A stretch of 64,000 nucleotides of DNA from an uncultured Fibrobacteria bacterium (GTDB lineage: Bacteria > Fibrobacterota > Fibrobacteria > UBA11236): positions 2,560,001 through 2,624,000 of the forward strand of contig OY970309.1 in assembly GCA_963716395.1 (NCBI GenBank), read 5' to 3'. Position 1 is the stretch's first letter, and each line of letters starts with the position of its first letter. Shown one piece after another: positions 47,218 to 62,633 of this stretch. Both the position numbers and the translations under genes were made by a program. The notes below the pieces were generated by a model that was not told the origin of the DNA, did not search any database, and saw only the letters and a program-made list of their open reading frames with translations.

Positions 47218-47445
47218 CCCCCCCCCGGCGGTGTGCGAGCCGGAAGGCCGCCGCACCCTTCGTCGGTTCGAAGGGCTCACCGACCGAAGGGGCGCGGGTG
47301 AGCCCGGTTCCCGAGCCAGTCAAGAAATGTCGAGTCCGAGTCGGCGAAGAAATTCTCAGAGTCGGAGCACGGAGCAAGGCAATCGCTTGCGCGATCGATT
47401 CCTCCTGGCGCCGCATACGGACGCCACCTACTTTACATTAAAACG

Positions 47446-49929
47446 CTATTTCACAAAGGCCAAGAGTCGGGTGACTTGCGCCGTTCCAGCGGTGCAGCGC
47501 GCGAAAAAGACGCCGACGCCGAGCGAAAGAGGCGTTCCTTCGGGGCGCGATTGCGCCGGAGAATATTGGAGACGGTGGACCACATGGCCCTGCATATCGA
47601 CCAGGTCGATGACGATGTCCTTTCCCTGAAACTCTTCGGGGAGCCACAGGTTTTGCCCCAGCACATTTAACATGCGTTTACCCGAGGCGGCCAAGGCCGG
47701 GGGCTTGGGAAGCAAGACGGGCGTGAAACTCGAAAACAAAAATTTCTCCGCGGTTTCTTGAAAGCGTTCGACGCTGTCTTTTTTTGAAATCAAAACCAGA
47801 TAGGCTACGGAGTCGGATGACTTCGCAGGCGTGAACGAGATTTGCGTGGTGACATGCGACCCGAGGGGAATGCTCGGATGCAAAGAGCCCGAGTCGATCA
47901 CCGGCCCGGTGGGAGATGAATTGCGCAATTGCCAGGAGACGTCGACCGCCGTGCCGGAAAATTCATCGTTGTAAACGGTCAGGTTACGGGTCACCATTTG
48001 TCCGATGTTGAGAACCGTCGGCTTCACATAAGGCCAGTCGCCTTTCGCATCCGACATCTTGTTGCTTTCCCAGAAGCCGCTGTCGGCCACCAGCACCGGG
48101 TTATACGCGGCCTGAATGCGTTCGATGATCGGATTGCTCCACGGATTCGGCAAATTGTCCGTGCCGTAAATGGGATTGGGGCTGAGGGTGACGCCATTCC
48201 ACGATGTATAGTTCTTATAACCTTGCTCGAGTTCCATATCGGTGCGGCGCACACCAGGGACCAAGCTCGCCCAGGCCGAAAGCAAGGTATAGGGCCGGAT
48301 GTCCGAAGCGTTTTGCCGGCGCATGGCCTGGGCGGACGTGGCGAACCACATGAAACCCTGCAAGGTTTCATCCATCGGCCAGACGAACTCGCCTTGACCA
48401 AAAGGTTGATCGGTGCGGGTGCCGACGGCCTCGGTGTAATTACCCAAGCCGTTGCCATAATGGATGAAGGTGGAAAAGTTCGGGTATTTCAGGTTGTTGA
48501 AGGTGGTCCCGTCCACGCTGATGGGCCGCGTCGAGTCTGCGGACATGGCCGCATTGTAAAGATCGATTTCGAATTGGTCGGTGCCGCCCGGCTCGTTGGA
48601 TTGGCTCCAGCGCACCACCGCCGGATGATTCCGATCGCGATCGATCAAGGCGATCAGATGGTTGACCATGTTGTTGTGCCCGTTGGTGAAATCCTCGTTG
48701 CCTTCGCTGCCCCGGATGGCCGATTCCACCATCACCATGAGTCCTTTTTCGTCGCACACGTCCAACATATACGGCGCGACCGGCTCCTGGTGCAGGCGCA
48801 CGAAGTTGAAGTTGAGGCGCTGGTAATTGTCCACCACTTGGGGCCAGCCGTTGGCGCCGGACCCGAATCCGGGATAGGTATCATACGCGTCACCCCGGCC
48901 GCCGCCGTAATTGATGGCGTCGTAATTGACGCCCTGAAGGTTGTCGCCCCGGAAATTCACCCGGATGCCGTTCAGGAAGTAGTCGGTGAAGCCGCCGCTG
49001 CTTTTTTGATCCACTTCCCGAAACCCGAAGCGAACCGTTTTCGTGTTCACGGCCGCGGCGTTCTGCATCAAAGTGAGCGTCAAGTTGTGGAGCTGGGCCG
49101 TATACCCGGTTTGATACGGCACGTTCGGCCACCAGTACGAACTCGCGCCGAGCCCCCAGGCGATGGGTCCGAACGTGATTTTCATCGTGGCGTTCGGGTT
49201 GACGGTGAACGTTTGACTGGGAATGGACGGATAAGCGAAGTTGCTTTGGTTCCACGAAGAAAGGGCCGCCGACAGGCTCAGGTTCTGCGCGGTATTGCCC
49301 GCATTGGTGACCCACACGTCGAAGGCCAGCGATGCGTTGGTCACCGAAGTGCGGACGTAACAATCGCTGATATAAATCTGCGGGTAGACTTTGAGAAATG
49401 CGGATCGGAAGATGCCGTCGGGCAAATTCGGACTCCATCCCGCCGCAGTCGGAACGGTTGATTTTCCATTCACCGTAAACGCATTTCTGCCTTTCACGTC
49501 GACTTGGAGCGTATAACTTTGTCCGGGTGTGACGAATTTGGAAATGTCGAAGACCGAAGGCGTCCAGGCCGTGAGATTGGTGGCCACCAGTTGATTATTG
49601 ATGGAAAGCGCAGCCTGATAGTTGACGACTCCGAATTCGATTTTGGTGACCTGGGGCTGGCCGGAATTGGGAATCGCAATCGTACGGGAATAGACGGCTT
49701 CGCTGATGTTGGTAAAGCCCTGTTTGTACCAGCCGCCGCCGGGAACCGTAATCGTCGTCTGACTTTTACCCGCCGGGGTAAAGTTCCAGGTGCCCGAAAG
49801 ATCGACGCTGTCGAGCGGAGCGCCCTCGTCGGCCAGGCTTCCGACAACCAGAAAGCAAACGAGACACAACGCCGATTTTTCACGCAGCGTTCTTTCGATC
49901 TTTTCGGATTGCCGAGGCAATTTCATCAT
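47446..49929 (-). CDS. Secreted GH2-family glycoside hydrolase with T9SS-like C-terminal domain
   Basis: DLSGTWNF, GIFRS, RFGFRE, LNG...FRG.N, NFVRLH, CDEKGLMV, RDRNHPAVVRWSQSNE, GEF; tail DMQG..V...GVFF. Confidence 0.85.
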   Translation of the reverse strand: MMKLPRQSEKIERTLREKSALCLVCFLVVGSLADEGAPLDSVDLSGTWNFTPAGKSQTTITVPGGGWYKQGFTNISEAVYSRTIAIPNSGQPQVTKIEFGVVNYQAALSINNQLVATNLTAWTPSVFDISKFVTPGQSYTLQVDVKGRNAFTVNGKSTVPTAAGWSPNLPDGIFRSAFLKVYPQIYISDCYVRTSVTNASLAFDVWVTNAGNTAQNLSLSAALSSWNQSNFAYPSIPSQTFTVNPNATMKITFGPIAWGLGASSYWWPNVPYQTGYTAQLHNLTLTLMQNAAAVNTKTVRFGFREVDQKSSGGFTDYFLNGIRVNFRGDNLQGVNYDAINYGGGRGDAYDTYPGFGSGANGWPQVVDNYQRLNFNFVRLHQEPVAPYMLDVCDEKGLMVMVESAIRGSEGNEDFTNGHNNMVNHLIALIDRDRNHPAVVRWSQSNEPGGTDQFEIDLYNAAMSADSTRPISVDGTTFNNLKYPNFSTFIHYGNGLGNYTEAVGTRTDQPFGQGEFVWPMDETLQGFMWFATSAQAMRRQNASDIRPYTLLSAWASLVPGVRRTDMELEQGYKNYTSWNGVTLSPNPIYGTDNLPNPWSNPIIERIQAAYNPVLVADSGFWESNKMSDAKGDWPYVKPTVLNIGQMVTRNLTVYNDEFSGTAVDVSWQLRNSSPTGPVIDSGSLHPSIPLGSHVTTQISFTPAKSSDSVAYLVLISKKDSVERFQETAEKFLFSSFTPVLLPKPPALAASGKRMLNVLGQNLWLPEEFQGKDIVIDLVDMQGHVVHRLQYSPAQSRPEGTPLSLGVGVFFARCTAGTAQVTRLLAFVK

Positions 49930-49978
49930 GTTGTTTCCTCTCTAGAAAAAGTTTGGGCTTGGGCCTCGGAGCGTTTCG

Positions 49979-50050
49979 GGGGAATTGCGCCAGGAGCGAT
50001 CCGGTTTTTTGGTTTTCGAAACTGAGCTTGATGAATTCATCCGACCGGGC
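49979..50050 (-). pseudogene. 3' remnant of a DUF2341/LamG lipoprotein paralogue
   Basis: Reads ARSDEFIKLSFENQKTGSLLAQFP versus ARSDDFIKLSFENQQANSPLLQFP at the end of the 53845-55533 gene. Confidence 0.82.
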
Positions 50051-50291
50051 GAAAAAGTTGAATCCAATTGGAATCGTTGGGGCCGGAAAAAACCAGGGCG
50101 GTTGCAGTGAAAATGAACATGCAGAAAACCCTTGGTTTCAAGGCAATTTCCTTCGGATGGGGGCCCGACCATTTCTTTTCGCGCACCGATTTTGACATCG
50201 GTGAGACGATCCCTCTGAAAAGGGATATAATCCTAACCCTATAATCCCGCAGACCAAGGGCAAATCTTTAGTTTCCGAATGGAAACGTCTC
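50046..50291 (-). repeat. ~245-bp diverged copy of 53572-53813 (promoter plus 5' end of the DUF1080 gene); encodes a 34-aa stub at 50141-50037
   Basis: Colinear match by eye; stub LKPRVFCMFIFTATALVFSGPNDSNWIQLFRPVG* versus LKPMVFCMLIFTATTTVFSGPNDSNWIQLFRPG. Confidence 0.9.
50271..50286. promoter_or_regulatory. Palindromic site GTTTCCGAATGGAAAC (copy 1)
   Basis: 41 bp upstream (minus strand) of a TATAT box at 50225-50229. Confidence 0.65.
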
Positions 50292-50601
50292 TACAGCTTT
50301 CGGTGATACGGCCGGGGACGGTCGCGGTAAAGATTCGTTTTCGGAGTAGTTGTGATTTTTTGACTTCGAGGCGGCGTTTTTCTCTTGAACAGGCGGATAC
50401 CATCTGGATTGGTTCGTCTCGTTCCGGATGAAACGGGAATCGTACCGAATGAAAATGGTTGTGGAGAGGAGCCCGAACTTACTGCCAACGGAAACTACGC
50501 GGGGCGTCCAAAATTTTCCGGCGCGAAACTTCGGCACATTCTTGTCGCTGCTGCCTGCGGTTCTCTTTCCGCGCCTGCTCGTCCGCCACCGGCCGGGATT
50601 T

Positions 50602-52386
50602 TCACGGCACGGCCACGCGTTGCGTGATGGATGTCTGTACGTTGCCGAGTCGAATCAGGTAGATGCCGGGTCCGTAAGACTGGGCGGATTGCCATTGCCC
50701 GTTGTTGTTGTTGAGATTCCCCGCGGTTTCCAACACGCGGCCATCAAGGCTTAGGACTTGGGCTTTTTCCACGCCGGTAAACCACGCAGCTTGCAAGCGG
50801 CCTCCGGGCAGGGCGGATACACGCGTATTCCAACGGTTGGCGTCGTTTTGCAGGTGGCGGTTCTCCAAAATGCCGACGGGTGTGCCGGGACCGAAATTAT
50901 TCAAAGTGTACCAGAAACGATCGCTCCACATCGTCCGGCCGGAAACCGAGGCGATACCGGAGAATTTGATATAAATCAAGTCGCCTTGCGTGAGTCCGTT
51001 GATGGTCAAGGTGGCCGTCATTCCGTCGGCGCTCAAGGTGGCGGATTGAACGGTCAGGTTTTGCGTGGCGCCGGTGCAGCAACCGTAGTACTCTCCACTT
51101 GGAGCCGGAATGATGTAGTTCCATTCTTGCGCGGTGAAATTGGAGGCGTTCACGGCCTTCGCCGGTTCGGTGAAATCGAGCGCGAAGGTGGTGGTGCCCG
51201 TGGAACGAACGTCGAGAACGTCGAAGACGGGCGTGTTGTTTTCCACCATGCGCTGTAATCCGTAATACTGGTTGTTCCAGTTCCAGCCGCCCCAAACGTT
51301 GCCGCCGACTCCGATGCCGCCGATGTAGATGGCCCCGTCCGGACCGACGATCATACGGTTTGCGCCCGCCTGCAGGCCGCCGGAAAAGCGGAAGACCGCG
51401 CCTTGGTAATCGCCGTTCACCTTTTCCAGGGAAATGCGGGCCAGGCATCCCAGATTGTTGTCACCCACCAACATCTGATGGGCGAAGAGTCCGCTGGTTA
51501 AATAAACCGGCTGCGTGTTGGAAATTCCCAGGGCGTCGATGCCATTGCCGTAGGGAAACCACACCACGGGAGGGGTGGCCGGCGTGTTACTGAAAGGACT
51601 GCGATTATTTTTCAACACGCTGAAAAAGCGACCCTGCTTGACTTGCACGAGCTTGTCGGCGGGAACGTAATCGCCCTGATTATCGGTGACGAAGATACCG
51701 TCTTCGGGGCCGAGGGTAATGCCATTGGGAGAGCGAATGCCGCAGGCGATGGTGTCGAAGCCGGCTTTCCCGAGGGTCAGCCCGAGGATGCAACTGCGTT
51801 CCGGCGACTGGACGTCGCCTAAAGGGTATTCGGTCGCCAAGCCCACGATGAAGCGATTGTCGGGGGCCGGGGTGTATACCAATCCCTCGGCGAAAGACAA
51901 ATCTTTGCCGCCGTTGGTGGAGGCGCCGGCGTTGCGATGCCAACCGCTGCCGACCTTCTTCATGGACAGGAGTACGGTATCATTGGTGGAGTCAAACACC
52001 ATTTGCACCAGAGAATCCTTGTTGACCACGTAGACCTGGCCGTTCATCGTCGTAGCACCGAGCGGTTCGTCCATGTTGGTGGACAGGGTTTTGTAGGTGA
52101 TCTTCGTCGAATCTCCGCTTTCCACGTTTTTTATGATGTAGGCGGCGCCGGGTCCTCCCGGCGAGGTATTGCCGAATCCTATCCAGGTTGTCACCAACAA
52201 ATCGCCGTTGGGCAAAAAATCCATACCGCTGACTTGAGGGTTGAATCCCGGAGGCCGCAAACTGGACATGGTGAAATGAGGGTAGACGGGGGGGGTTACC
52301 GGCTGGGCGGGGGCGCCGATCCAGAGGAGAGCCAAGACCGCCGCACCCGTAAAGCTTGGGTGTTTTCTCTGATAGTAGCCTCTCAT
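50602..52386 (-). CDS. Secreted beta-propeller protein (sugar-dehydrogenase-like fold) with T9SS-like tail
   Basis: Signal peptide, P.VSGMDFLPNGDLLVTTW, GIRSPNG, TDNQGDYVPA, LEKVNGDYQGAVFRF; tail SLDGRVL...GIYLIRL. Confidence 0.72.
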   Translation of the reverse strand: MRGYYQRKHPSFTGAAVLALLWIGAPAQPVTPPVYPHFTMSSLRPPGFNPQVSGMDFLPNGDLLVTTWIGFGNTSPGGPGAAYIIKNVESGDSTKITYKTLSTNMDEPLGATTMNGQVYVVNKDSLVQMVFDSTNDTVLLSMKKVGSGWHRNAGASTNGGKDLSFAEGLVYTPAPDNRFIVGLATEYPLGDVQSPERSCILGLTLGKAGFDTIACGIRSPNGITLGPEDGIFVTDNQGDYVPADKLVQVKQGRFFSVLKNNRSPFSNTPATPPVVWFPYGNGIDALGISNTQPVYLTSGLFAHQMLVGDNNLGCLARISLEKVNGDYQGAVFRFSGGLQAGANRMIVGPDGAIYIGGIGVGGNVWGGWNWNNQYYGLQRMVENNTPVFDVLDVRSTGTTTFALDFTEPAKAVNASNFTAQEWNYIIPAPSGEYYGCCTGATQNLTVQSATLSADGMTATLTINGLTQGDLIYIKFSGIASVSGRTMWSDRFWYTLNNFGPGTPVGILENRHLQNDANRWNTRVSALPGGRLQAAWFTGVEKAQVLSLDGRVLETAGNLNNNNGQWQSAQSYGPGIYLIRLGNVQTSITQRVAVP

Positions 52387-52459
52387 TTTAAGTCCTCCCG
52401 GCCTTATGAAATATTTTCCAAAGCACCCATTTCAAGGGCGAGTGAATGTATCCCCGTCC

Positions 52460-53668
52460 TTACAATTTGGGGTAAACGGCCTGCGCAATTCCCTGGCGCG
52501 TTTCCACCCGCAGGTTATACAGGCCCGGCTTCAGAGCGGAGAGATCAAGATACGTTCGTCCCGCGCCACGAAATGAAGCCGCACGAACGCCATTTAAATC
52601 GTAGGCATCGACACGAATGATTTCACTCGTGGAAACAATGCGGTTACCCTCCAGAGAGAAGATTTCGAGGCTCCGTTTTTCCGAACGCACGATTCCGGAC
52701 ACTCCCGAGCATTGTGTGGGATCATTTTTAACGAAATAGGCCCGGTACGCAGTGTCGTTTTTGTCCATGCAACCCACCAAATTCAACAATTCGATTTTGG
52801 CGAACTCCGTCGAGGTGCCTTCCAATTGAATGGCGATGTATCCGGACGAAATCGGGGCCGCACCATTGAGGTTGGTGTTGCTGGAAGTCTGACCCGAATG
52901 GGGGCCGGTGAAACCCATGACGGAATCCCAGGCGGTGTCGGGACGGCTTCGGACCCAAAAAGTCATCGAGGTGGAGTCCAACACCCGCGACAGGGAATAC
53001 TCCCAAATGTTTCTTCCGGGCCAGGTGGCATTGCTGGAGTTGAGGCCGTTCCCGGCAATCGTGGAGGAGTCATAACTGAGATCATGAAATTTTGCGTTGG
53101 TGCAGTGATTCCCCGTATTATCGGAATACCATTTCCCTTGGTAATTGATGGTTGTTCCATTGGCGCAAATATTGGAACTTCTCACGTTGGGGGGGCCATT
53201 GCAGCAGCCGTTGCTCCAGTATCCCAACAATTGATTTTCAAAGCAGTTCGGATAGGCCTGGTTTACGCCCATGGTATGCGGATCCTGGGAATGCAGCATC
53301 AGGCCGTTGTTCTGAATGGTATAACCTCCATGATCCAGATCCGATTTTTGGGGAAAGTGAAATTGCGCCCGCAAGAGGTAGTCGGAAAAAGGCGTCTTAT
53401 AAAAGAGATGGCCGTACCCATAAATGGAACTGAGAGGGGTCGTATCGATTACCTCCAGCATGGGGGTGTGCGAAGAATCGTTGCTGACCGCATAGCGGAA
53501 GGTGTTATAAAGATTCACGCCCAGGTTTTGACCTTCAATTTTGGGAATCCAATCGGAAAGGGTCGTGTCGCCCGGGCGAAAAAGTTGAATCCAATTGGAA
53601 TCGTTGGGTCCGGAAAAAACCGTGGTGGTGGCCGTGAAAATCAACATGCAGAAAACCATTGGTTTCAA
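52460..53668 (-). CDS. Secreted DUF1080 (3-keto-disaccharide hydrolase-like) protein with T9SS-like tail
   Basis: W..LF...LSDW.PKI, GHLFYKTPFSDY.L, NNGLMLHSQ, SGYIAIQLEG...EF.KIELLNL.GCMD; TTG start after AAGGAG. Confidence 0.8.
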   Translation of the reverse strand: MKPMVFCMLIFTATTTVFSGPNDSNWIQLFRPGDTTLSDWIPKIEGQNLGVNLYNTFRYAVSNDSSHTPMLEVIDTTPLSSIYGYGHLFYKTPFSDYLLRAQFHFPQKSDLDHGGYTIQNNGLMLHSQDPHTMGVNQAYPNCFENQLLGYWSNGCCNGPPNVRSSNICANGTTINYQGKWYSDNTGNHCTNAKFHDLSYDSSTIAGNGLNSSNATWPGRNIWEYSLSRVLDSTSMTFWVRSRPDTAWDSVMGFTGPHSGQTSSNTNLNGAAPISSGYIAIQLEGTSTEFAKIELLNLVGCMDKNDTAYRAYFVKNDPTQCSGVSGIVRSEKRSLEIFSLEGNRIVSTSEIIRVDAYDLNGVRAASFRGAGRTYLDLSALKPGLYNLRVETRQGIAQAVYPKL

Positions 53669-53792
53669 GGCGATCTCCTTTGGATGGGGCCCGACCATTT
53701 CTTTTCGCGCACCGATTTTGACATCGGTGAGACGCTCCCTCTGGGGATATAGCTCTAACCCTATAATCTCGCAGACCAAGGGCAATTCTTTG

Positions 53793-53808
53793 GTTTCCAA
53801 ATGGAAAC
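53793..53808. promoter_or_regulatory. Palindromic site GTTTCCAAATGGAAAC (copy 2)
   Basis: 7-bp arms with 2-bp spacer, 41 bp upstream of TATAT (53747-53751) for the DUF1080 gene. Confidence 0.7.
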
Positions 53809-53844
53809 GTCTCATTTTCCGGCGCGAGCTTCCGGGTTCCGGGA

Positions 53845-55533
53845 TCAGGGGAATTGCAATAAGGGCGAATTTGCTTGCTGATTTTCAAAGCTGAGTTTGA
53901 TGAAATCATCCGATCGGGCGGCCAGCGTTACCCAGATCTCGTCCAAGGTCCCTTGGAAATAAAAGCTGATGCCCGGCGGAGCCCAGAGGGCCAATACTCC
54001 GTAGCCCCAGCGCCAATAGCCCGTAATGTTTTCGGCCACCGTGGACGCGGGATCAGAAGCGACGAGCAGGCCGTCAACGAACAAGTCTTGGCCGCTGGCG
54101 GAGAGGCGTGCCACGACTTGGTGCCACGCGCCGTCGTTGAGCGGAGTGGGCGAATCGACGGTCTTAAAGATTCCGGGATTCGGATTGCTTTGATTCGCCG
54201 AGTCCGGCGGGTACACGGAAAAATGCACCGTCCCGTTGGGCGTCATGAAAATGTGACGATCCCGATAATTGGAGGTGGTGGATGTGTCCACATCGGTGAA
54301 ATCCAGGATCTTGCCGCCGTTCGTGGTTGTGGTCTTGAACCAGGCGGCCAGGGTGAACACCTGGGGGTTGGTGAAACTTCGCTGCGTTCCGGCGAATTGC
54401 GTCTGGCCGTCAAGCCCCATGCCGCTTTCCACCAAGCCGGGTACCGCACCGGCGGAAGCGGTGTAGCCGACGGCGATTCCCGGATTGTTGGCCCCGGAGG
54501 CGTCTTGATATTGGGGCGCGCCACCGCCCGGGCTTTCATCCAGATGCCAGACGCCGGCATACCCGTCGGCGGCCGCGAACACCGAATCGGTCGGGAAAGG
54601 AGCGGACGTATCGGTCTGGCCCCAAAGCATGTGGAGCGTTTGGATGGAATCGCCGAAGACCGTATCCACCCGCACCCAGGCTTCCGCCCGGGCGCCGGCC
54701 GAATCCCAGTGCTCGACGGCGCAGGGCAGCGGGTCGCCCGCGGCATTGGTGAAGCGGAGATCCGAGCCGTTACTGCGCGCCGAGGAGAAATCGAAATTGG
54801 CTTGCGAAAGCCGGACCAGCAGCGGAAAGCGCGTCACCGTGCCCGGTACGTCCGCGCCGCCCGCGGTGGTATTCAAAACCAGGGTCCGCGTGTATTTCCA
54901 CGACAAATAGGGCGCCGGCGCCGAAGTGGTCGAATCCGGTTTCACGGCGAGATCCCACGCAAAGGTCACCGGCCCTACCGTACCTTCCGGGTTACCGTAT
55001 TGGATCGAGTCGATTGTTCCGACGGGGATGGAATCCAGCCGGACGTTCCCCGCGGCGGATGCGATTTTTTGATGGAAGGTGGAGCCGGTTACATAGATGT
55101 AACCATCCGTCGTGTCGACGGCGCCGCGCAAGGCCACCATTACGGCTCCCGGGGGTTGCAGATTTTGGCCGGGAAGCTGCACGACACCTTGCGTGATTCG
55201 GATGCCTTGCAAACGCGCGCGCGCACCCGAGACCAAACTCACGGCTTCAAGATTGTAGATGCCGCTGTCGATTCCCGTGAAGTGGAACCGGCCTTGATCG
55301 TCGGTGGTATCGGCCCGCGGTGCGGCTTTCTTCGCGATGAAGTCCAACGTATTGAAATCGCTGGGCAGGAGATAAACCTGCGTGCGGGCGGCCGGCAGTC
55401 CCTTCGCCGTTCGGAAAACTCCGGCCGCGCCTTTGATCGGGTTCCCCGTTTCCGAACCGTCGAAGCACGCTTCGAAGCAGCACCCGGCGGCAAAGAGAAG
55501 AAGGCCTATCCGGAAAAAGGGGCGGCGCATCAT
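53845..55533 (-). CDS. Lipoprotein: carboxypeptidase-regulatory-like domain + DUF2341 + LamG/concanavalin A domain
   Basis: Cys-containing signal then GSETGNP; TTDDQGRFHF; FPLLVRL...FDFS.A..NGSDLRFT; GVWHLDE; LNDGAWHQVV, FQGTLDE. Confidence 0.82.
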   Translation of the reverse strand: MMRRPFFRIGLLLFAAGCCFEACFDGSETGNPIKGAAGVFRTAKGLPAARTQVYLLPSDFNTLDFIAKKAAPRADTTDDQGRFHFTGIDSGIYNLEAVSLVSGARARLQGIRITQGVVQLPGQNLQPPGAVMVALRGAVDTTDGYIYVTGSTFHQKIASAAGNVRLDSIPVGTIDSIQYGNPEGTVGPVTFAWDLAVKPDSTTSAPAPYLSWKYTRTLVLNTTAGGADVPGTVTRFPLLVRLSQANFDFSSARSNGSDLRFTNAAGDPLPCAVEHWDSAGARAEAWVRVDTVFGDSIQTLHMLWGQTDTSAPFPTDSVFAAADGYAGVWHLDESPGGGAPQYQDASGANNPGIAVGYTASAGAVPGLVESGMGLDGQTQFAGTQRSFTNPQVFTLAAWFKTTTTNGGKILDFTDVDTSTTSNYRDRHIFMTPNGTVHFSVYPPDSANQSNPNPGIFKTVDSPTPLNDGAWHQVVARLSASGQDLFVDGLLVASDPASTVAENITGYWRWGYGVLALWAPPGISFYFQGTLDEIWVTLAARSDDFIKLSFENQQANSPLLQFP

Positions 55534-56408
55534 GGCTTCGCCCGGGCGGGGATTTTCGAAAGGGGAAAAAACTGCGTGTTCAACTGGTAGACGCGATCGG
55601 GGTGGGGAAAATTCTGTTCCATGCCCAGAAGTTTCCGCCGGAAGGCGACGATCTCCTCTTTGAAAACTTCAAAAGCCTCGCGGGAAAGGCTCAACGTCAG
55701 CGTCGAAATGTCACGGACCGCGGGGTCGTGGCGATCGATCGCCTCTTTGGCCAAGTCCATGCAGGCGATTTGATAGTTCGCGACGTTCAATGATCTTACT
55801 TCCGGCCCCGTGGTGATGGGGTTTCCGGTTTGTCGGTACACGCCCTGCGCGTCCTGGGCGATGAATTTCAGATCTTCCAAAACCCGGATGGCTTTTTCCG
55901 CCTGCTCCGGAAGAATCGGCGGCTCCAACATCCTGGCCAGCGCGGCGTAATCGTCTTGGAAGCGGATGAGACCGATCAATTCGCGGAGGGCGCTGTAATA
56001 CCATTTGGAATAGAACTCGTATTGGCTGGATTGGATCAGAAAGGGCTCGACATTGCGGAAAGACATCATGCGCTCGAAATGGGTCCGCTTGTCGTCCAGA
56101 GTTTTGGCGTCATTGAAGTACACCATGTTTTCGAAATAAAGGGCTTCCTTTTTATTGAGCTTCATCGCGGCCGAAAATTTGGAGATGAGGCTTCGGCCCA
56201 AAGTGCGTTTGCCGTCGACCACGTTCTTGTAGAGTCCGGAAGAGTTGATCTTGGCGCGCAAGGCGAAATAGCGGTAGGAGAAAACCGGGTTTTTCTGTTT
56301 TTGAAAAGCGTAATAGGCGCGCAGATACGCACGGTAGTCCGTGAAGCCGAAAACCGAGGGGCAGGCGCTTTCGGCCATCGGGTTCTTTTCGCTTGCAAGG
56401 GTGGTCAT
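55530..56408 (-). CDS. TIGR02147 family protein (N-terminal HTH, DUF4423-like C-terminus)
   Basis: F.FTDYRAYLRAYY..K.....FSYRYFA.RA.I.S...K.V..GKR.L, E..YF..MV.F..AK, FYSKWYYSALRELI, RDISTLTL, VYQLN.Q.FPL. Confidence 0.88.
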   Translation of the reverse strand: MTTLASEKNPMAESACPSVFGFTDYRAYLRAYYAFQKQKNPVFSYRYFALRAKINSSGLYKNVVDGKRTLGRSLISKFSAAMKLNKKEALYFENMVYFNDAKTLDDKRTHFERMMSFRNVEPFLIQSSQYEFYSKWYYSALRELIGLIRFQDDYAALARMLEPPILPEQAEKAIRVLEDLKFIAQDAQGVYRQTGNPITTGPEVRSLNVANYQIACMDLAKEAIDRHDPAVRDISTLTLSLSREAFEVFKEEIVAFRRKLLGMEQNFPHPDRVYQLNTQFFPLSKIPARAKP

Positions 56409-56412
56409 TTAC

Positions 56413-56426
56413 GGAAACCGGTTTCC
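56413..56426. promoter_or_regulatory. Perfect palindrome GGAAACCGGTTTCC over the TIGR02147 translation start region (LacI-operator-like)
   Basis: 4 nt from the start codon; conserved in copy B at 60208-60221. Confidence 0.55.
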
Positions 56427-56506
56427 CGGTCGCGGGCGAAGTAAATCTGCAGGGCTATATATAAGCCGAACCCGAATCCGCGGAGGTCAAAGTCGATCTT
56501 TTTTTT

Positions 56507-56522
56507 GTTTCCAAATGGAAAC
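56507..56522. promoter_or_regulatory. Palindromic site GTTTCCAAATGGAAAC (copy 3)
   Basis: 43 bp upstream of TATATATA (56456-56463) for TIGR02147. Confidence 0.7.
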
Positions 56523-56592
56523 ACCTCAAGGAATTCAATCCGCTCGCCCGGTCCGTTCCAGTAAGACGTTCAAGTGCGGTCCCAGGTGTCGC

Positions 56593-56720
56593 GTTGTTGG
56601 GCCGCAACCTCGGCGGTCACTTGCCGCGGCGGCTGCTGTTGAAGATGGGGGCCTGGACCGTGCCTTGGGTTCGGGCACTTCGGGCAGCGTGCTGGCGCCG
56701 CTGCTCATTCTCGGCGGGAC
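56593..56720 (+). pseudogene. Internal fragment of the ClC channel gene (copy of 61757-61885)
   Basis: Matches LLGRNLGGHLPR..LLKMGAWTV.LGSGTSG.VLAPLLILGG with a 1-nt deletion. Confidence 0.9.
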
Positions 56721-56746
56721 CGGCAATCCACGCGATCTCTCACGTC

Positions 56747-57110
56747 CATGCCTAGGTCCGCCGCGAACCCGAAAAAACCGCGCTCTACCAGGTCTTTCAC
56801 AGGTACCTGCCCAGCTTCGAGCGGATGTGGACCGGCGCCGATTCGTGGAATTGCCTACCCAAGCATGCCACCCAGGAGTTACAGGAATTCCTGGCCGGCG
56901 GCATGCTCTCGCATGGTTTCGCGCAAATGCTTTGCGACTCTTGCCGCAAACGGCACCTGGTGGCCTTTCCGACGCAGGTCGATCGACGGAACCGCCCAAG
57001 GTTGTGAAGCCCGAGCCGCCGGAGACTGAAGCGATTGAACTCGATGGGGACGATGATGGCACCGGCGAATCCGACGCAAGCGAAGGCACGGATTGGCCGA
57101 GTATCCGGAT
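56747..57110 (+). mobile_element. IS91-family (rolling-circle) transposase remnant, internally deleted
   Basis: Frame reads A*VRREPEKTALYQVFHRYL..F...LP.H...E..EFL..GML.HGFA...CDSC....LVAF (zinc-binding N-terminus), then jumps to a TEPPKV.PEPP acidic C-terminus-like segment. Confidence 0.75.
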
Positions 57111-57529
57111 TGGCTGGGATGCTGGTTCACCGGCACGCTACCCTGCGGGGGAAGGGTGCGGTGTGCCTTGGGCTGAATCGGAGGGAGATTCCGCCGGGGG
57201 AAAGTGGAATGCGGGCGGGGGAAATCGGGGGTTGTGGTTGGAATTGAAGGGTTGTGGATGGGAGGGTTGGGCTGGGGAGGGTGGCCATGAGTGGAAAACA
57301 GGGTTTGATTTATCGAGGCCCTTTTTCAATAATGAGAAATTTTAGGAGCGCTGCTAGAGGCACTATTTTCAAGTCCGCCAAGTTAGCAGCACAAGCTGTC
57401 GCCAATGTTCCGACACATTACCGTCGGCAACACCATTGGATTCGCATTCCCCGAAATTATTCAACAACTTCTCTTCAACCGAGATTAGAGCGGCCGCAAC
57501 CCGTGGCGAAATCTTTTTTCAGCCCACTA

Positions 57530-59224
57530 TCAACGCGGTAGCCAGTTAACCAACTTCCGGGTCACCTTCGTCCCGCCAGCATTCAACCTGAGGATGTAGC
57601 TTCCACGGCCTAATGATGTGGGAATTGCAGTAGTGTAAACGCCCGCCGGTTTGAATCCGTCCGCGAGAACGGCCACAATGTTTCCGCGCATATCCACAAC
57701 ATCCACTTTTACCGCAGCGCCTGAAGCGATAGAATAGGTGATGGCTCTGTTCTTATAATGCAAGGATACGCCTGAAGCCACCCTCGCCGGTTTGGGTGTG
57801 AGGATAGGCGACGTCGACACGGAGTCGTCGAGAACCATGAATTGAAAAAGGGAATAACCGCTACCGGGTCCAGCATGATCGGTGCCGTACATGCGCACAT
57901 AGCGGGCGGAGGTGGTGGCAAAAGTTTCGTCGGTCACCGACCGCGCCCCGCCCTTGGTGGTGCTGAATACGTCGGTCCACGCCGTGTTGTCGTTGGATAG
58001 TTGGATTTTGAACGACTTCGCATACGTCGAATCCCATTTTAAAATGACCCGATTCACCGGCATGGAAGAGCCGAGATCGACCGTGATCCACTGCGGATCG
58101 CCGCTCCCGCTGACCCATTCCGTATTCATATAATTCTGCCAATTCGAAGGGGCCGTTACGTTGCCCGGCAAATTGCTACCTGTGCTCGAGGACGCGGTTG
58201 CAGGCTTATGCAGCGCCACGTTTCTTTGACTGTCGATGGCGCGCCATATTCCCCGATCGGGATCGACTTCCCAATCCTGATAATAGTTGATCACCACCGA
58301 GTCTTTCGGAGTGAAGGTGATGGGCAACCAGGCATAATCCCCGTTCCGTGCCGGATGGGGTCTCTTCCAGCGGTCGCCCGCATACATCTGCACGGTATCT
58401 TCCGTGCCCTTGAAGCGGAACACAAAGTCGCATTGCGTGTCCCAAGAGGTCTTATAGGCATCGCCGGGAGCGATGATGGGAACCAGATTGGTCGTCCAGG
58501 GCCCACTAATACTCGGGGCCGTAAAGTATTGGGTTTCCGAAGGGTCTATGCCCAACATCTTCGAGGTCATGTAATAGTATAGGCCGCGGCGTTTCATCAT
58601 CAGCTCCGCTTCGCGGTCACTATTAGACCAAACCTGCATTTGTTTCTGCAGATTGATATAGTCGGGTGTCATCAACGCAAAACTTTGGGTCGTCGCGCCG
58701 TTATTCCATATTTCCCACAAGTAGTAGGCTTTGCCGTCATCATCCTTGAATACCGACATGTCCCCGGTATTCGCGCCGTAAACGGTGCTGTCAAACATTT
58801 TCGTGAAAGGCCCGGTGGGGCTGTCGCTGAGCGCGATGGCCCGGTTGCACCACTCCGGACCGGGCGTCTCCCATTTGATGACCATGACGTATTTCTTCGT
58901 CGAGTCGTTATACAACACATCCATGCGATTCGATCCCCGGGAGGCGACGAGCATGGTGCCGTGGTTTGTCCAATGCAGCAGGTCCGTCGACGAGTAACAG
59001 GTTTGAATCGTCTGGGTCGGGTCGCAGCCATACCAGTAATACGTTCCCCCGAATTTGTTTAGGCATCCGCTCCGGGTGTGAATCGGGTTCCCGTCCAGGT
59101 CGTATTGGAAAAAATCATTATGGATTGTGAGCCACTTTGCTTGCGAGCTTAATACGGTCAAGGCGAGGGCCAACACCGACCGTTGCAACACCTGAGTCCA
59201 TGCCGAAATTTTCGAACTGCTCAT
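57530..59224 (-). CDS. Secreted GH43 (subfamily 24-like, exo-beta-1,3-galactanase-like) + CBM32/F5-8 domain + T9SS-like tail
   Basis: YYWYG, YSSTDLLHW, DMSVFKDDDGKAY, REA, TQ, GDRW, YAWLP; NVALHKPATASS..WITVDLG..ARYVRM; tail DMRG.IV...GSYILRL. Confidence 0.86.
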   Translation of the reverse strand: MSSSKISAWTQVLQRSVLALALTVLSSQAKWLTIHNDFFQYDLDGNPIHTRSGCLNKFGGTYYWYGCDPTQTIQTCYSSTDLLHWTNHGTMLVASRGSNRMDVLYNDSTKKYVMVIKWETPGPEWCNRAIALSDSPTGPFTKMFDSTVYGANTGDMSVFKDDDGKAYYLWEIWNNGATTQSFALMTPDYINLQKQMQVWSNSDREAELMMKRRGLYYYMTSKMLGIDPSETQYFTAPSISGPWTTNLVPIIAPGDAYKTSWDTQCDFVFRFKGTEDTVQMYAGDRWKRPHPARNGDYAWLPITFTPKDSVVINYYQDWEVDPDRGIWRAIDSQRNVALHKPATASSSTGSNLPGNVTAPSNWQNYMNTEWVSGSGDPQWITVDLGSSMPVNRVILKWDSTYAKSFKIQLSNDNTAWTDVFSTTKGGARSVTDETFATTSARYVRMYGTDHAGPGSGYSLFQFMVLDDSVSTSPILTPKPARVASGVSLHYKNRAITYSIASGAAVKVDVVDMRGNIVAVLADGFKPAGVYTTAIPTSLGRGSYILRLNAGGTKVTRKLVNWLPR

Positions 59225-59873
59225 ACCGAACCTTTCGTTTCCATGCCGATGGCTTAAAAGAGCCGGGGAAAATCGAATCCCTGTTCTGAAAATCCGGTCG
59301 GTTGCCATTTCAATTCAACATAATAGTGCGGCTTTACGGGAAAGGTGTTGCCATTCTTAATGTAGGTCGACCCTATGGAAGGTTTTTCGGAAAACGATCA
59401 TTTGGAAAGCGACCCTAAGGAAAGTCCATAAAAGCCCATTACCGATAAGAATTCTTAAACGGAATCCTTCGGTTCGCATTTCCTCCCCTTCAACACCTTT
59501 TCTTTGGCGGACTTCGAGGCCGCCGCAAGGGCGAAGAGTCTGCATTTTTCCCAATGGGGCGGAAGGCGTATACGACTGAAATCGCAGCGCCTCGGCCCAA
59601 CTTCGTGCCCGTGTTTGTTGCCGTTGGGAATTGGACGTAAAATGGACGTAACTACTGATTTATATATCCGGGGTGACCCTTGCCGGCAACCATTTCGGAT
59701 CCCATTCTGCCCAAGCAATAGAAATACCGAAAGAGCACTGGGGTGAGCAGGATCCTTTAATTCGTGTTTTGGCTCACCCGCACCGAAAGAGAAATATTTT
59801 CATTGAATCGGGACGCCTGGGTCTGGCCGCACAGTTTGGTTTACAGGCGGACTAACATTTGTTGCCTATTTTT

Positions 59874-60203
59874 TTAAGGGGGCGGGGAACAAAGACTTTT
59901 GGCGTCATTGAAGTACACCATGTTTTCGAAATAAAGGGCTTCTTTTTTATTGAGCTTCATCGCGGCCGAAAATTTGGAGATGAGGCTTCGGCCCAAAGTG
60001 CGCTTGCCATCGACCACATTCTTGTAGAGTCCGGAAGAGTTGATCTTGGCGCGCAAGGCGAAATAGCGGTACGAGAAAACGGCGTTCTTCTGTTTTTGAA
60101 AAGTGTAATAGGCGCGCAGATACGCACGGTAGTCCGTGAAGCCGAAAACCGAGGGGCAGGCGCTTTCGGCCATCGGGTTCTTTTCGCTTGCAAGGGTGGT
60201 CAT
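59874..60203 (-). pseudogene. Truncated second copy of TIGR02147 gene
   Basis: First ~102 codons nearly identical to 55530-56408, then breaks into SLCSPPP*. Confidence 0.9.
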
Positions 60204-60301
60204 TTACGGAAACCGGTTTCCCGGTCGCGGGCGAAGTAAATCTGCAGGGCTATATATAAGCCGAACCCGAATCCGCGGAGGTCACAGTCGATCTTTTTTT
60301 T

Positions 60302-60317
60302 GTTTCCAAATGGAAAC
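60302..60317. promoter_or_regulatory. Palindromic site GTTTCCAAATGGAAAC (copy 4, within repeat copy B)
   Basis: Same position relative to the truncated TIGR02147 copy. Confidence 0.65.
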
Positions 60318-60329
60318 ACCTCAAGGAAT

Positions 60330-60746
60330 TCAATCCGTTCGCGCGATCCGTTCCAGTAAAACGTTCAAGTGCGGTCCCAGGCGCTGCAACTCGGCGCGGT
60401 GCACAGCGCTGAGGCGATCGAGTAAATCTTTTCCCCATGGCGTGAGGCTTACGAAGACCTGGCGTCGATCCGTGGTGGCGGTCGTGCGCGCCATCAATCC
60501 TTGCCGGACCAGCCGGTTCACCAGGCCCACGGCGCTGTGGTGCCGGATTTGCAATTGCTCCGCCAATTCTCCCAGGGTGACACGTTCACGCCCGGGAAAA
60601 CCTTCCACCGCCAGCAAAGCTTGGTGTTGCTGCGGCTCCAGGCCGAGGGGGCGCGCGGCCTCTTCGCTGAAGCGCAAAAAGCGCCGCAGGGCGTAGCGGA
60701 ACGCCGCCAGGTGCTCGTATTCGGATTTTTGCAGTCGTTTTTTCAA
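60330..60746 (-). CDS. MarR family transcriptional regulator
   Basis: LAAFRYALRRFLRFSEEAAR, QQHQALL, TLGELAEQL.I.HHSAVGLVNRL, DRR.V.V.LT..G; TTG start inferred. Confidence 0.9.
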   Translation of the reverse strand: MKKRLQKSEYEHLAAFRYALRRFLRFSEEAARPLGLEPQQHQALLAVEGFPGRERVTLGELAEQLQIRHHSAVGLVNRLVRQGLMARTTATTDRRQVFVSLTPWGKDLLDRLSAVHRAELQRLGPHLNVLLERIARTD

Positions 60747-60830: not shown

Positions 60831-62633
60831 ATGCCGCCCCGAACCCCGCCGCCTCGTGGCGATCACCTCGCCGACTTCACGCGCGATCCGCGCGTCTTGC
60901 TGCTTGCGCTCCTGGCCCTGGGTATCGGCGTGCTCAGTGCGGGCGCGGCCTGGGTGCTGGTGAAAGCCATCGCGCTGGTCACCGACCTGGCATTTTACCA
61001 CCGCTTCTCCGCAGCCAACCTTTCTCCGGCACGGCAAGCGCTGGGCGCGGCGGTGATCGCGGTGCCGGCGCTGGGCGGACTTTTCATCGGACTCATGGCG
61101 CGTTTCGGATCGGAACAAATCCGGGGCCACGGCATTCCCGAAGCCCTCGAAGCCATTCTGTTCGGACAAAGCCGCATGCACCCCAAGGTCGCGATCTTGA
61201 AACCCATTTCCTCGGCCGTATCCATCGGAACCGGCGGTCCGTTCGGCGCCGAAGGTCCGATCATCATGACCGGCGGCGCTTTGGGATCTCTCATCGCCCA
61301 ATGGTTCCGCTTGTCGTCGGCGGAGCGGAAAACCCTGCTGGCCGCCGGCGCCGCGGGCGGCATGGCCGCCATTTTCGCCGCCCCCGTATCTTCTGTGTTA
61401 CTGGCGGTGGAGGTGCTGCTTTTCGAGTGGCGGCCGCGATCGTTTCTTCCTGTGACGGTGGCGGCGACCACCGCGGGCGCCCTGCGTGCGCCGCTGCTCG
61501 GAATGGGGCCGATCTTTCCTGTGCCGCCGCATCCGGCCATGGCGGCGGGTGCTTGGGGGGGAGTTATTCTCTTCGGCGCCGTCGGAGGATTGGCCGCTAT
61601 GCTACTGACCGCGCTGGTCTATGGTTGCGAAGATCTGTTTCACAAGCTGCCGCTACATTGGATGTGGTGGCCGGCTCTGGGAGGTCTGATCGTGGGCGTG
61701 ATGGGGTGGCGCGATCCCCGCATCTTCGGCGTCGGCTATGATCTCATCCACGACCTGTTGTTGGGGCGCAACCTCGGCGGCCACTTGCCGCGGCTGCTGC
61801 TGCTGAAGATGGGGGCCTGGACCGTGGCCTTGGGTTCGGGCACCTCGGGCGGCGTGCTGGCGCCGCTGCTTATTCTCGGCGGGACGCTGGGCGCGCTGGA
61901 GGCACACTGGTTTTCGCTGCCCGATCCCGGACTATGGGCTATGCTGGAAATGGCGGCGGTAATGGGCGGCGCCCTACGCGCGCCCTTCACGGCGGTGGTG
62001 TTTGCGGTGGAGTTGACGCAGGACGTGTCGGTGTTGCCGGCTCTGCTCGCAACCTGCGCCACGGCTTACGCCGTCACGGTGTTCTTCATGCGGCGATCCA
62101 TTTTGACCGCAAAGGTGGCGCGGCGAGGATACCACTTGACTTGCGAATACGGCGTTGATCCTCTTCGCTGGCAACGCGTGGCCGACGTGATGGATCGGGA
62201 TTTCATAACGGTTCCGGCCGATCTCGCCGCCGCGGATTTGGCCCGGCGCATCGCGCAGAACAATCCGGGCATGAGCCGACACCGCGCCTTTCCCGTTCTC
62301 GATACGGAAAATGATCTGGTCGGCATCGTGACCCGGGGCGATGTGATCCGCGCGGAGGCCGGCGGCGAAGCCAAGACGGTATTGCAGGCCGGCAACGACC
62401 ACCCGATCACGATCTTTCCCGACGAGGTATTGGAAACGGCTGTAGCCAAAATGTTGCAGAAGGGCGTCGGCCGGCTGCTGGTGGTCACGCGTGCCGAACC
62501 GAACCGGGTAATCGGCTATCTGGGACGATCGGGGTTACTGGCCGCGCACCAGAATCATTTCGCCGCAGAAGCGGTGCCGCCGCGCCTAACCAGAAGCGGT
62601 CAGCACAAGCGGAAGCCACCCGGGACAAGTTGA
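60831..62633 (+). CDS. ClC-family chloride channel/antiporter with tandem CBS domains
   Basis: GHGIPE, GGPFGAEGP, GSGTSGGVLAP, AVELT; C-terminal CBS pair. Confidence 0.93.
   Translation: MPPRTPPPRGDHLADFTRDPRVLLLALLALGIGVLSAGAAWVLVKAIALVTDLAFYHRFSAANLSPARQALGAAVIAVPALGGLFIGLMARFGSEQIRGHGIPEALEAILFGQSRMHPKVAILKPISSAVSIGTGGPFGAEGPIIMTGGALGSLIAQWFRLSSAERKTLLAAGAAGGMAAIFAAPVSSVLLAVEVLLFEWRPRSFLPVTVAATTAGALRAPLLGMGPIFPVPPHPAMAAGAWGGVILFGAVGGLAAMLLTALVYGCEDLFHKLPLHWMWWPALGGLIVGVMGWRDPRIFGVGYDLIHDLLLGRNLGGHLPRLLLLKMGAWTVALGSGTSGGVLAPLLILGGTLGALEAHWFSLPDPGLWAMLEMAAVMGGALRAPFTAVVFAVELTQDVSVLPALLATCATAYAVTVFFMRRSILTAKVARRGYHLTCEYGVDPLRWQRVADVMDRDFITVPADLAAADLARRIAQNNPGMSRHRAFPVLDTENDLVGIVTRGDVIRAEAGGEAKTVLQAGNDHPITIFPDEVLETAVAKMLQKGVGRLLVVTRAEPNRVIGYLGRSGLLAAHQNHFAAEAVPPRLTRSGQHKRKPPGTS

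Follow-up and report, generated by a model that had tools for sequence, protein, structure and literature searches.

How are the genes for secreted glycan-active proteins controlled in Fibrobacter and its relatives? Regulation of glycoside hydrolase (GH) genes in these bacteria is an open question, and the genome paper on F. succinogenes S85 leaves cellulase regulation unanswered and finds few regulators near cellulase genes (PMC3079729). The question arises in compact form in a 64,000-nucleotide (nt) stretch of the genome of an uncultured Fibrobacteria bacterium (GenBank assembly GCA_963716395.1, contig OY970309.1, positions 2,560,001 to 2,624,000; hereafter the window), where a gene for a TIGR02147 protein stands beside a lipoprotein gene and several genes for secreted enzymes, and where one palindrome, GTTTCC-N4-GGAAAC, recurs in the promoter regions. 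Taken together, the comparisons presented here are best explained if the TIGR02147 protein is a local, self-regulating helix-turn-helix (HTH) factor whose site is a palindrome; no function has been described for its family.

Few families in these genomes are as strongly expanded as TIGR02147; in 41 genomes searched at E <= 1e-40, the number of matches ranged from 0 to 59 per genome. Our search of the literature, conducted on main texts, found no functional study of TIGR02147 ("Fsuc_second") or DUF4423, the name occurring only in a proteome table, and no paper on F. succinogenes promoters or transcription start sites. An earlier reading of this DNA, made from its letters alone (the original prediction), had described the family as uncharacterized and strongly expanded, and on both points it agrees with these searches. 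The operator, the gene pairing, and the promoter geometry of this locus are not described in the literature searched.

A Palindrome Repeated in Two Promoter Contexts

The candidate regulator (292 amino acids; 55530..56408, minus strand) scores 285.6 bits against TIGR02147 (NCBIfam; cut-off 50), aligning to profile positions 3-271 of 272, and 134.2 bits against DUF4423 (PF14394; gathering cut-off 30) over residues 125-283. Its stop codon overlaps by 4 nt the start of a gene for a 562-amino-acid lipoprotein with DUF2341 and LamG domains (53845..55533, minus strand), an overlap that had been noted beforehand and is confirmed.

Scanning of the window found the palindrome at 50271, 53793, 56507, and 60302, against a chance expectation of 0.01; none of 100 shuffled sequences reached four copies. 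The host genome, that of a soil member of the Fibrobacterota, is a single contig of 3,754,783 bp with a guanine-plus-cytosine (GC) content of 0.598, and the only exact copies in the whole of it are the four at this locus. Only three soil DNA runs contain small shares of the stretch, and no RNA run is listed as containing any of it. By self-comparison the four palindromes collapse to two contexts, each duplicated once: 56098-56586 matches 59893-60381 (489 bp, 96.9% identity), and 50042-50291 matches 53569-53813 (250 bp, 90% identity). Both the four positions and their reduction to two contexts had been predicted, and scan and self-comparison bear them out.

The first context is the regulator's own promoter. 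The palindrome there, a putative operator whose extended form is TGTTTCC-N4-GGAAACA, occupies 56507..56522, and a -10-like box, TATATA (56458..56463, minus strand), follows 43 nt past it, with the ATG (56408) another 49 nt on. The second lies within the 146 nt that separate the lipoprotein gene from a gene for a secreted DUF1080 protein, where a second putative operator copy (53793..53808) is followed after 41 nt by a TATATC box (53746..53751, minus strand). These measured distances are those given by the original prediction, which had placed the site 41-43 nt from the box. The regulator and DUF1080 promoters are the older pair; between them the palindrome is identical (16 of 16 bases) and the spacer has diverged, which points to selection on the site.

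The palindrome is also retained in both duplicated promoter copies. One of these, a 90% copy of the DUF1080 promoter (50042..50291, minus strand; palindrome 50271-50286, TATATC 50224-50229), is found about 340 nt upstream of the start of a GH2 gene, and between the two lie a frameshifted N-terminal remnant of DUF1080 and a remnant similar to the 3'-terminal part of a gene for a LamG lipoprotein. The other, a 96.9% copy of the regulator promoter (59893..60381, minus strand; palindrome 60302-60317, TATATA 60253-60258), includes the 3' tail of a MarR gene and the first ~105 codons of the regulator, after which it breaks off, about 585 nt upstream of a GH43 gene. The duplicated promoters are putative drivers of the GH2 and GH43 genes.

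These comparisons also bear on a quite different account, in which the palindrome acts in RNA, as a hairpin or terminator, or its four copies are by-products of duplication or assembly. A simple scan does list 53793 as terminator-like on the plus strand, and two of the four copies are recent duplicates. However, on the gene strand the hairpin has no T-run after it, and terminator-like matches are at the level of shuffled sequence (20 versus 19.6), on which grounds the terminator reading was rejected; across genomes, moreover, it is the arms that are invariant and the loop that varies. The duplicates differ by 3-10% and are therefore not assembly copies, and the older promoter pair has retained an intact palindrome amid diverged spacers. 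We regard this account as extremely improbable.

Conservation among Orthologous Loci

The regulator's closest relatives, at 65-75% identity, come from another genus of the same family (genomes G021-G024) and from Fibrobacterota metagenome-assembled genomes (loci L091, L093, and L095); among the matches listed, same-genus TIGR02147 proteins show 39-40% identity to it. Ten orthologous loci at 65% identity or more were compared: that of the window, two each in G023 and G022, one each in G021 and G024, and L091, L093, and L095. The exact palindrome stands upstream in 7 of the 10, a degenerate copy occupies the same place in two, and one has none. When 11 promoters were aligned (alignment A3; seven of regulator genes and four of other genes), no columns were invariant except the two hexamers and the TA of the TAT-rich box, with both the centre of the palindrome and its flanks variable. 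Such conservation amid varying flanks supports an operator role for the palindrome in this TIGR02147 orthogroup. The original prediction hinged on enrichment of the palindrome near TIGR02147 genes, and its retention 5' of the orthologues accords with this. A spacer motif that the prediction had found in both promoters of the window fared less evenly, being common to the G021 orthologue but absent from the other orthologues.

Gene order is kept in the relatives, where the regulator, the LamG lipoprotein, a protein of 553-594 amino acids, and DUF1080 are encoded by closely spaced genes behind a single promoter. The window differs in that the DUF1080 gene comes first, with its own copy of the promoter.

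At 90-350 nt 5' of the main palindrome, lone GTTTCC or GGAAAC hexamers were seen in 5 of 6 orthologous promoters examined (L092-L097). In the window, this hexamer-bearing upstream stretch is replaced by MarR and ClC fragments. Beside the regulator promoter (56540..56720) the 3' tail of MarR is repeated, together with 129 bp of the ClC gene that are 93.8% identical to 61757-61885; the region has therefore been rearranged.

The MarR-type protein encoded beside the 60302 copy offers an alternative, namely that it, or some other factor, is what binds the palindrome. The site at 60302 begins 13 nt past the MarR stop codon, and MarR proteins bind palindromes. Set against this, none of the six orthologous loci scanned with Pfam contains a MarR gene, although several keep the palindrome, and MarR was rejected as the binder because of this absence. 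The site is, in addition, always 5' of the TIGR02147 gene, and its half-site bases co-vary with helix 3 of the regulator, as described below. Binding by another factor is very improbable, and we infer that the palindrome is bound by the TIGR02147 protein itself.

Promoter Geometry and Additional Sites

Across seven related contexts the box starts 41-42 nt past the palindrome, and 9 of 10 contexts in all place it at 41-43 nt. If the box is the -10 element, the palindrome would be centred near -62 from the start so deduced, which would be the geometry of an activator.

The same layout recurs before other genes. Exact sites number five in G023, which has two orthologues, and three in G021, which has one; a reversed control sequence gave none in either genome. 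Additional sites with the arrangement of palindrome, 41 nt, and box precede genes for a GSDH-like protein (G023:C231), a protein weakly like GH95/GH65N (G023:C155), and a secreted BNR/sortilin-like protein (L091). The predicted association of the site with the regulator and with secreted enzymes is therefore upheld insofar as it precedes secreted glycan-related genes both here and in relatives; the activation that was predicted along with it is a deduction from promoter layout.

Summed over 41 related genomes, 42 sites were found as against 13 control hits. No TIGR02147 gene lies within 1.5 kb of the sites at 19 other loci, among which are longer hairpins of terminators, coding stretches, and a distinct class of tandem motif. 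Members of that class consist of two GTTTCC(C/T)-N-GGGAAAC palindromes with starts 26 bp apart, and are found upstream of a conserved gene in three genomes (L050 in G022:C50, L067 in G016:C141, and L071 in G015:C32), again with no TIGR02147 gene within 1.5 kb; they probably form the operator of another regulator. Within the host genome, a regulon scan that allowed up to two arm mismatches and required a strict box yielded five unconvincing matches; its box pattern missed the true sites as well, so that it carries little weight. A scan for sigma-70-type promoters gave seven matches versus 6.5 expected, none of them at the palindromes.

The position of the site relative to the box is also what bears on the sign of regulation, as the palindrome could be the regulator's own site and the protein nevertheless a repressor acting by negative autoregulation. 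Many local regulators of the Xre and MarR/ArsR types are autorepressors, and an everted repeat of the two hexamers, GGAAAC-CG-GTTTCC (56413..56426), located between the -10-like box and the regulator ATG, could be a repressing site. This repeat, which has a second copy at 60208-60221 and could also form a small hairpin in the mRNA or serve as an additional site of low affinity, is however missing from the orthologous promoters. The main site, 41-43 nt upstream of the box, lies outside the core promoter, and the second spacing class found in the wider family stands one helical turn further away, as contacts with RNA polymerase from one face of the helix would predict. Activation is favored over repression because of geometry alone, and we consider repression unlikely.

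The Pattern across the Family

The family survey comprised 80 Fibrobacterota TIGR02147 loci, 75 of which had upstream regions long enough for motif counts. Perfect inverted repeats with arms of at least 7 were present in 42 of the 75 regions, compared with 9.9 in shuffles and 11.9 in real windows from the same loci. The more specific pattern GTTnnn-N(0-10)-nnnAAC was present in 23, compared with 1.02 in shuffles (maximum 4 in 200) and 1.45 in real windows (maximum 4 in 40). The outer GTT and AAC are common to these sites, and the inner three bases differ by paralogue group (TCC, CTC, CCG, CCA, TTC, GTC, and others). A TAT-type box lies 40-43 nt downstream of the GTT-type palindrome in 15 of the 23 cases and at 50-51 nt in four more, the latter class being one helical turn further than the former. 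Altogether 30 boxes were found, of which 18 sit at 40-43 nt, where the background share is 0.11.

Predicted Fold and Recognition Helix of the Regulator

The AlphaFold model of the regulator (predicted local distance difference test [pLDDT] 82.0; predicted template modelling score [pTM] 0.52) contains two domains that resemble known DNA-binding folds, each at a level of similarity that can reflect a common arrangement: residues 22-106 match Xre/HigA-like HTH structures (3pxp, Z 8.9; 2eby, 8.6; 3trb, 8.3), and residues 125-200 match winged helices (2p4w, Z 8.7; 2jsc, 8.6; 2oqg, 8.3). Long C-terminal helices complete the model. A sequence search of solved structures with the regulator found nothing better than E 0.72; one paralogue matches HTH_31 (27.5 bits versus a cut-off of 27). 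The highest hydropathy over 19 residues is 0.51, so that the regulator has no membrane segment.

Residue 62, located in a predicted helix (59-64), was compared with base 4 of the half-site among the 23 regulators that have perfect GTT-type sites. Asparagine is accompanied by T in 10 of 10 cases, aspartate or glutamate by C in 9 of 10, and arginine by G in the single case (1 of 1). In the tree, the state combining asparagine with T appears in two separate clades (support 100/100 and 100/99).

The Lipoprotein and the Coupling of Its Gene to the Regulator Gene

All 10 TIGR02147 genes of this genome are followed, at -11 to +14 nt from the stop, by a gene whose product has a signal peptide and a Cys, and phylum-wide a lipoprotein gene comes after the TIGR02147 gene in 73 of 79 loci, with the 4-nt overlap in 29. 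The coupling first noticed at this one locus thus recurs in the neighborhood survey, both here and elsewhere. Genes for DUF1080, GSDH-like, and BD-FAE esterase proteins recur beside other pairs of the host genome (G000 loci L083, L085, L087, and L090), and others of its pairs are found among unrelated genes (for MutS, dehydrogenases, and a 2130-amino-acid TPR protein).

The N-terminus of the window's lipoprotein is a hydrophobic stretch followed by a Cys. Its model (pLDDT 87.5, pTM 0.83) is all-beta, and behind the signal peptide and Cys come an N-terminal beta-sandwich (CarboxypepD_reg in relatives), then DUF2341, and finally a LamG jelly-roll. Foldseek aligned the LamG part with arabinan-binding domain 4 of AbnA, a GH43 arabinanase (5hon_A; E 4.6e-08, target TM 0.66), and the lipoprotein's matches are to generic concanavalin-like and lectin-like jelly-rolls. 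As modelled, the protein fits a surface glycan-binding protein, a role that does not imply sensing.

Sensing was nonetheless part of the original prediction, according to which the exported LamG lipoprotein senses glycan and signals to the cytoplasmic TIGR02147 protein, the two forming one unit. The near-obligatory pairing would suit such a unit, as would the lectin-like LamG fold with its arabinan-binding structural neighbor. Yet the regulator lacks a membrane segment and the lipoprotein is exported, which puts the two in different compartments, and no conserved membrane-spanning third component was seen beside the pairs examined. Among orthologous lipoproteins the first mature residues are conserved and the signal peptides are not, so that a ligand derived from the signal peptide is unlikely; this candidate was accordingly rejected. 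The lipoproteins paired with the ten paralogues have, for the most part, nothing beyond the N-terminal part in common, and co-expression as the first regulated gene accounts for the pairing equally well. What survives of the predicted unit is the coupling of the genes, and we judge a sensor role of the lipoprotein in a two-part arrangement improbable.

An RRNPP-type peptide sensor, similar to PrgX, was also considered for the regulator and rejected, as its model has no TPR-like part, PrgX ranked 36th in Foldseek with a probability of 0.16, and the lack of conservation of the signal peptides speaks against this reading too.

Following the lipoprotein Cys in 62 of 79 loci is a short acidic motif resembling G-S-S/T-E-T, which may be the Fibrobacterota counterpart of the Bacteroidetes lipoprotein export signal. 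That signal is given as K-(D/E)2 at +2 to +6 from the Cys (PMC5080379); both are short acidic motifs soon after the lipid-anchor Cys, but the Fibrobacterota motif has another sequence and lies further from the Cys, and the surface exposure it would confer is putative. Among the lipoprotein-like N-termini (first 50 residues) of loci L091-L170, many have unusual residues (R, H, N, Q, K, Y, or F) just before the Cys.

Genes of the Island and Its Origin

Every protein encoded by the island has a signal-like N-terminal stretch, with the exception of the TIGR02147 protein. The DUF1080 gene (52460..53698, minus strand), which encodes a secreted 3-keto-disaccharide-hydrolase-like protein, likely starts at the ATG at 53698 and not at 53815; DUF1080 has reportedly been linked to 3-keto-disaccharide hydrolysis in Bacteroides. 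The secreted 594-amino-acid protein (50602..52386, minus strand) has, by profile match, a C-terminal domain of the type IX secretion system (T9SS) type, and is 44-46% identical to the product of the gene after the lipoprotein gene in the relatives' operons. A GH2-family glycoside hydrolase is encoded 3' of the duplicated DUF1080-type promoter (47446..49929, minus strand), and a GH43 protein with an F5/8-type-C domain and a T9SS-type C-terminal domain is encoded downstream of the truncated regulator copy (57530..59308, minus strand). Scores against TIGR04183 (T9SS type A sorting domain; cut-off 23) are 23.2 bits for 50602-52386, 25.3 bits for 57530-59308, and 19.9 bits, a weak match, for the DUF1080 protein (52460-53698). 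Just 5' of the GH2 gene, a 37-codon open stretch (49931-50041) is similar to the C-terminus of LamG-type lipoproteins; a gene for such a lipoprotein may once have directly preceded the GH2 gene.

The island extends from about 47400 to 60330, and its GC content is mostly 0.50-0.59, rising to 0.61-0.66 across the lipoprotein gene, with flanks of 0.62-0.68. Given this low GC content and the occurrence of the closest regulator orthologues in another genus, horizontal acquisition of the island looks likely. No empty site for the island was found, and the ClC protein at its border was not found at E <= 1e-60 in 11 same-genus genomes. The host genome, at 3.75 Mb, compares with 1.9-2.7 Mb for genomes of the same genus.

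A Proposed Mechanism and Its Significance

We propose that the TIGR02147 protein is a cytoplasmic transcription factor, probably a dimer, that would read TGTTTCC-N4-GGAAACA via helix 3 of its Xre-type HTH. From a site near -62, it would most likely activate the two-gene operon of regulator and lipoprotein; a second promoter activated in this way would serve the secreted DUF1080 enzyme and a beta-propeller-like protein, and two recent duplications would have set a copy of each promoter before a hydrolase gene, GH2 in one case and GH43 in the other. That the protein reads the palindrome and activates both its own operon and the DUF1080 promoter seems to us fairly probable on the strength of the sequence comparisons.

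Several observations weigh against this proposal. At the promoters, no -35 element was recognized, and it is we who infer that the TAT box serves as a -10 element. Among the orthologues, that on G022:C58 lacks the palindrome and follows directly after a DUF1080 gene; among the exact sites, those at G021:C80 and G021:C46:63610 look coding, and that before a pirin gene (G023:C125) has a spacing of 36 nt. Across the family, 52 of 75 loci are without a perfect GTT-type palindrome, and the nine other paralogues of this genome present a mixed palindrome picture. The structural Z values of 8-9 are at a level where a common arrangement may suffice, Foldseek with the regulator model returned nothing at E <= 0.001 (the best match being AdcR, E 0.03), and a Pfam scan assigned no HTH family to the regulator. 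Finally, the residue 62 rule involves few independent lineages and has one exception (L114), which makes it a lead, short of a proven code.

The locus supplies the TIGR02147 family with an 18-bp site, a promoter geometry, a candidate regulon, and a rule relating residue 62 to base 4. With site, geometry, and rule in hand, the regulons of hundreds of paralogues could become predictable, and the promoter duplications before GH2 and GH43 suggest a simple route by which a regulon may grow. A more far-reaching idea is that such cassettes are self-activating switches throughout the phylum, with private operators readable from one recognition-helix residue, feedback from the exported lipoprotein that would make each a genuine two-part sensor, and recruitment of secreted glycan-active enzymes by promoter duplication. 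We consider this extension quite doubtful; if true, the local control of polysaccharide degradation that is missing in the Fibrobacterota would lie with these cassettes.

Comparison with Known Systems

Polysaccharide utilization loci (PULs) of the Bacteroidota are controlled by SusR, by hybrid two-component systems, and by pairs of extracytoplasmic function (ECF) sigma and anti-sigma factors. The locus described here likewise has a local regulator beside genes for a putative surface lipoprotein and secreted glycan-active enzymes. It differs in that the TIGR02147 protein lacks a sensor part in the membrane or periplasm, and none of the eight proteins scanned (six of the island and two flanking) is SusC- or SusD-like. 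The regulator has no membrane-spanning sensor and these genes are lacking among those scanned; the analogy with PUL regulators that was part of the original prediction is therefore a functional one at best.

The promoter geometry, if the box is the -10 element, would resemble that of class I activators such as CRP, whose site at the lac promoter is centred at -61.5. Here too a dimer-type palindrome would lie about 62 bp upstream of the deduced start, and the sites of a second class would be some 10 bp more distant. The folds are unrelated, that of TIGR02147 being predicted to combine an Xre-type HTH with a winged helix, and a contact with RNA polymerase is putative.

Another comparison is with autoregulating local regulators of the Xre type, which include lambda cI acting at PRM and the controller (C) proteins of restriction-modification systems. 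The TIGR02147 protein shares with them a predicted Xre-like HTH, a palindrome 5' of its own gene, and probable positive autoregulation; it differs from them in its additional winged helix and long C-terminal helices, in its pairing with a lipoprotein, and in a site that lies further upstream.

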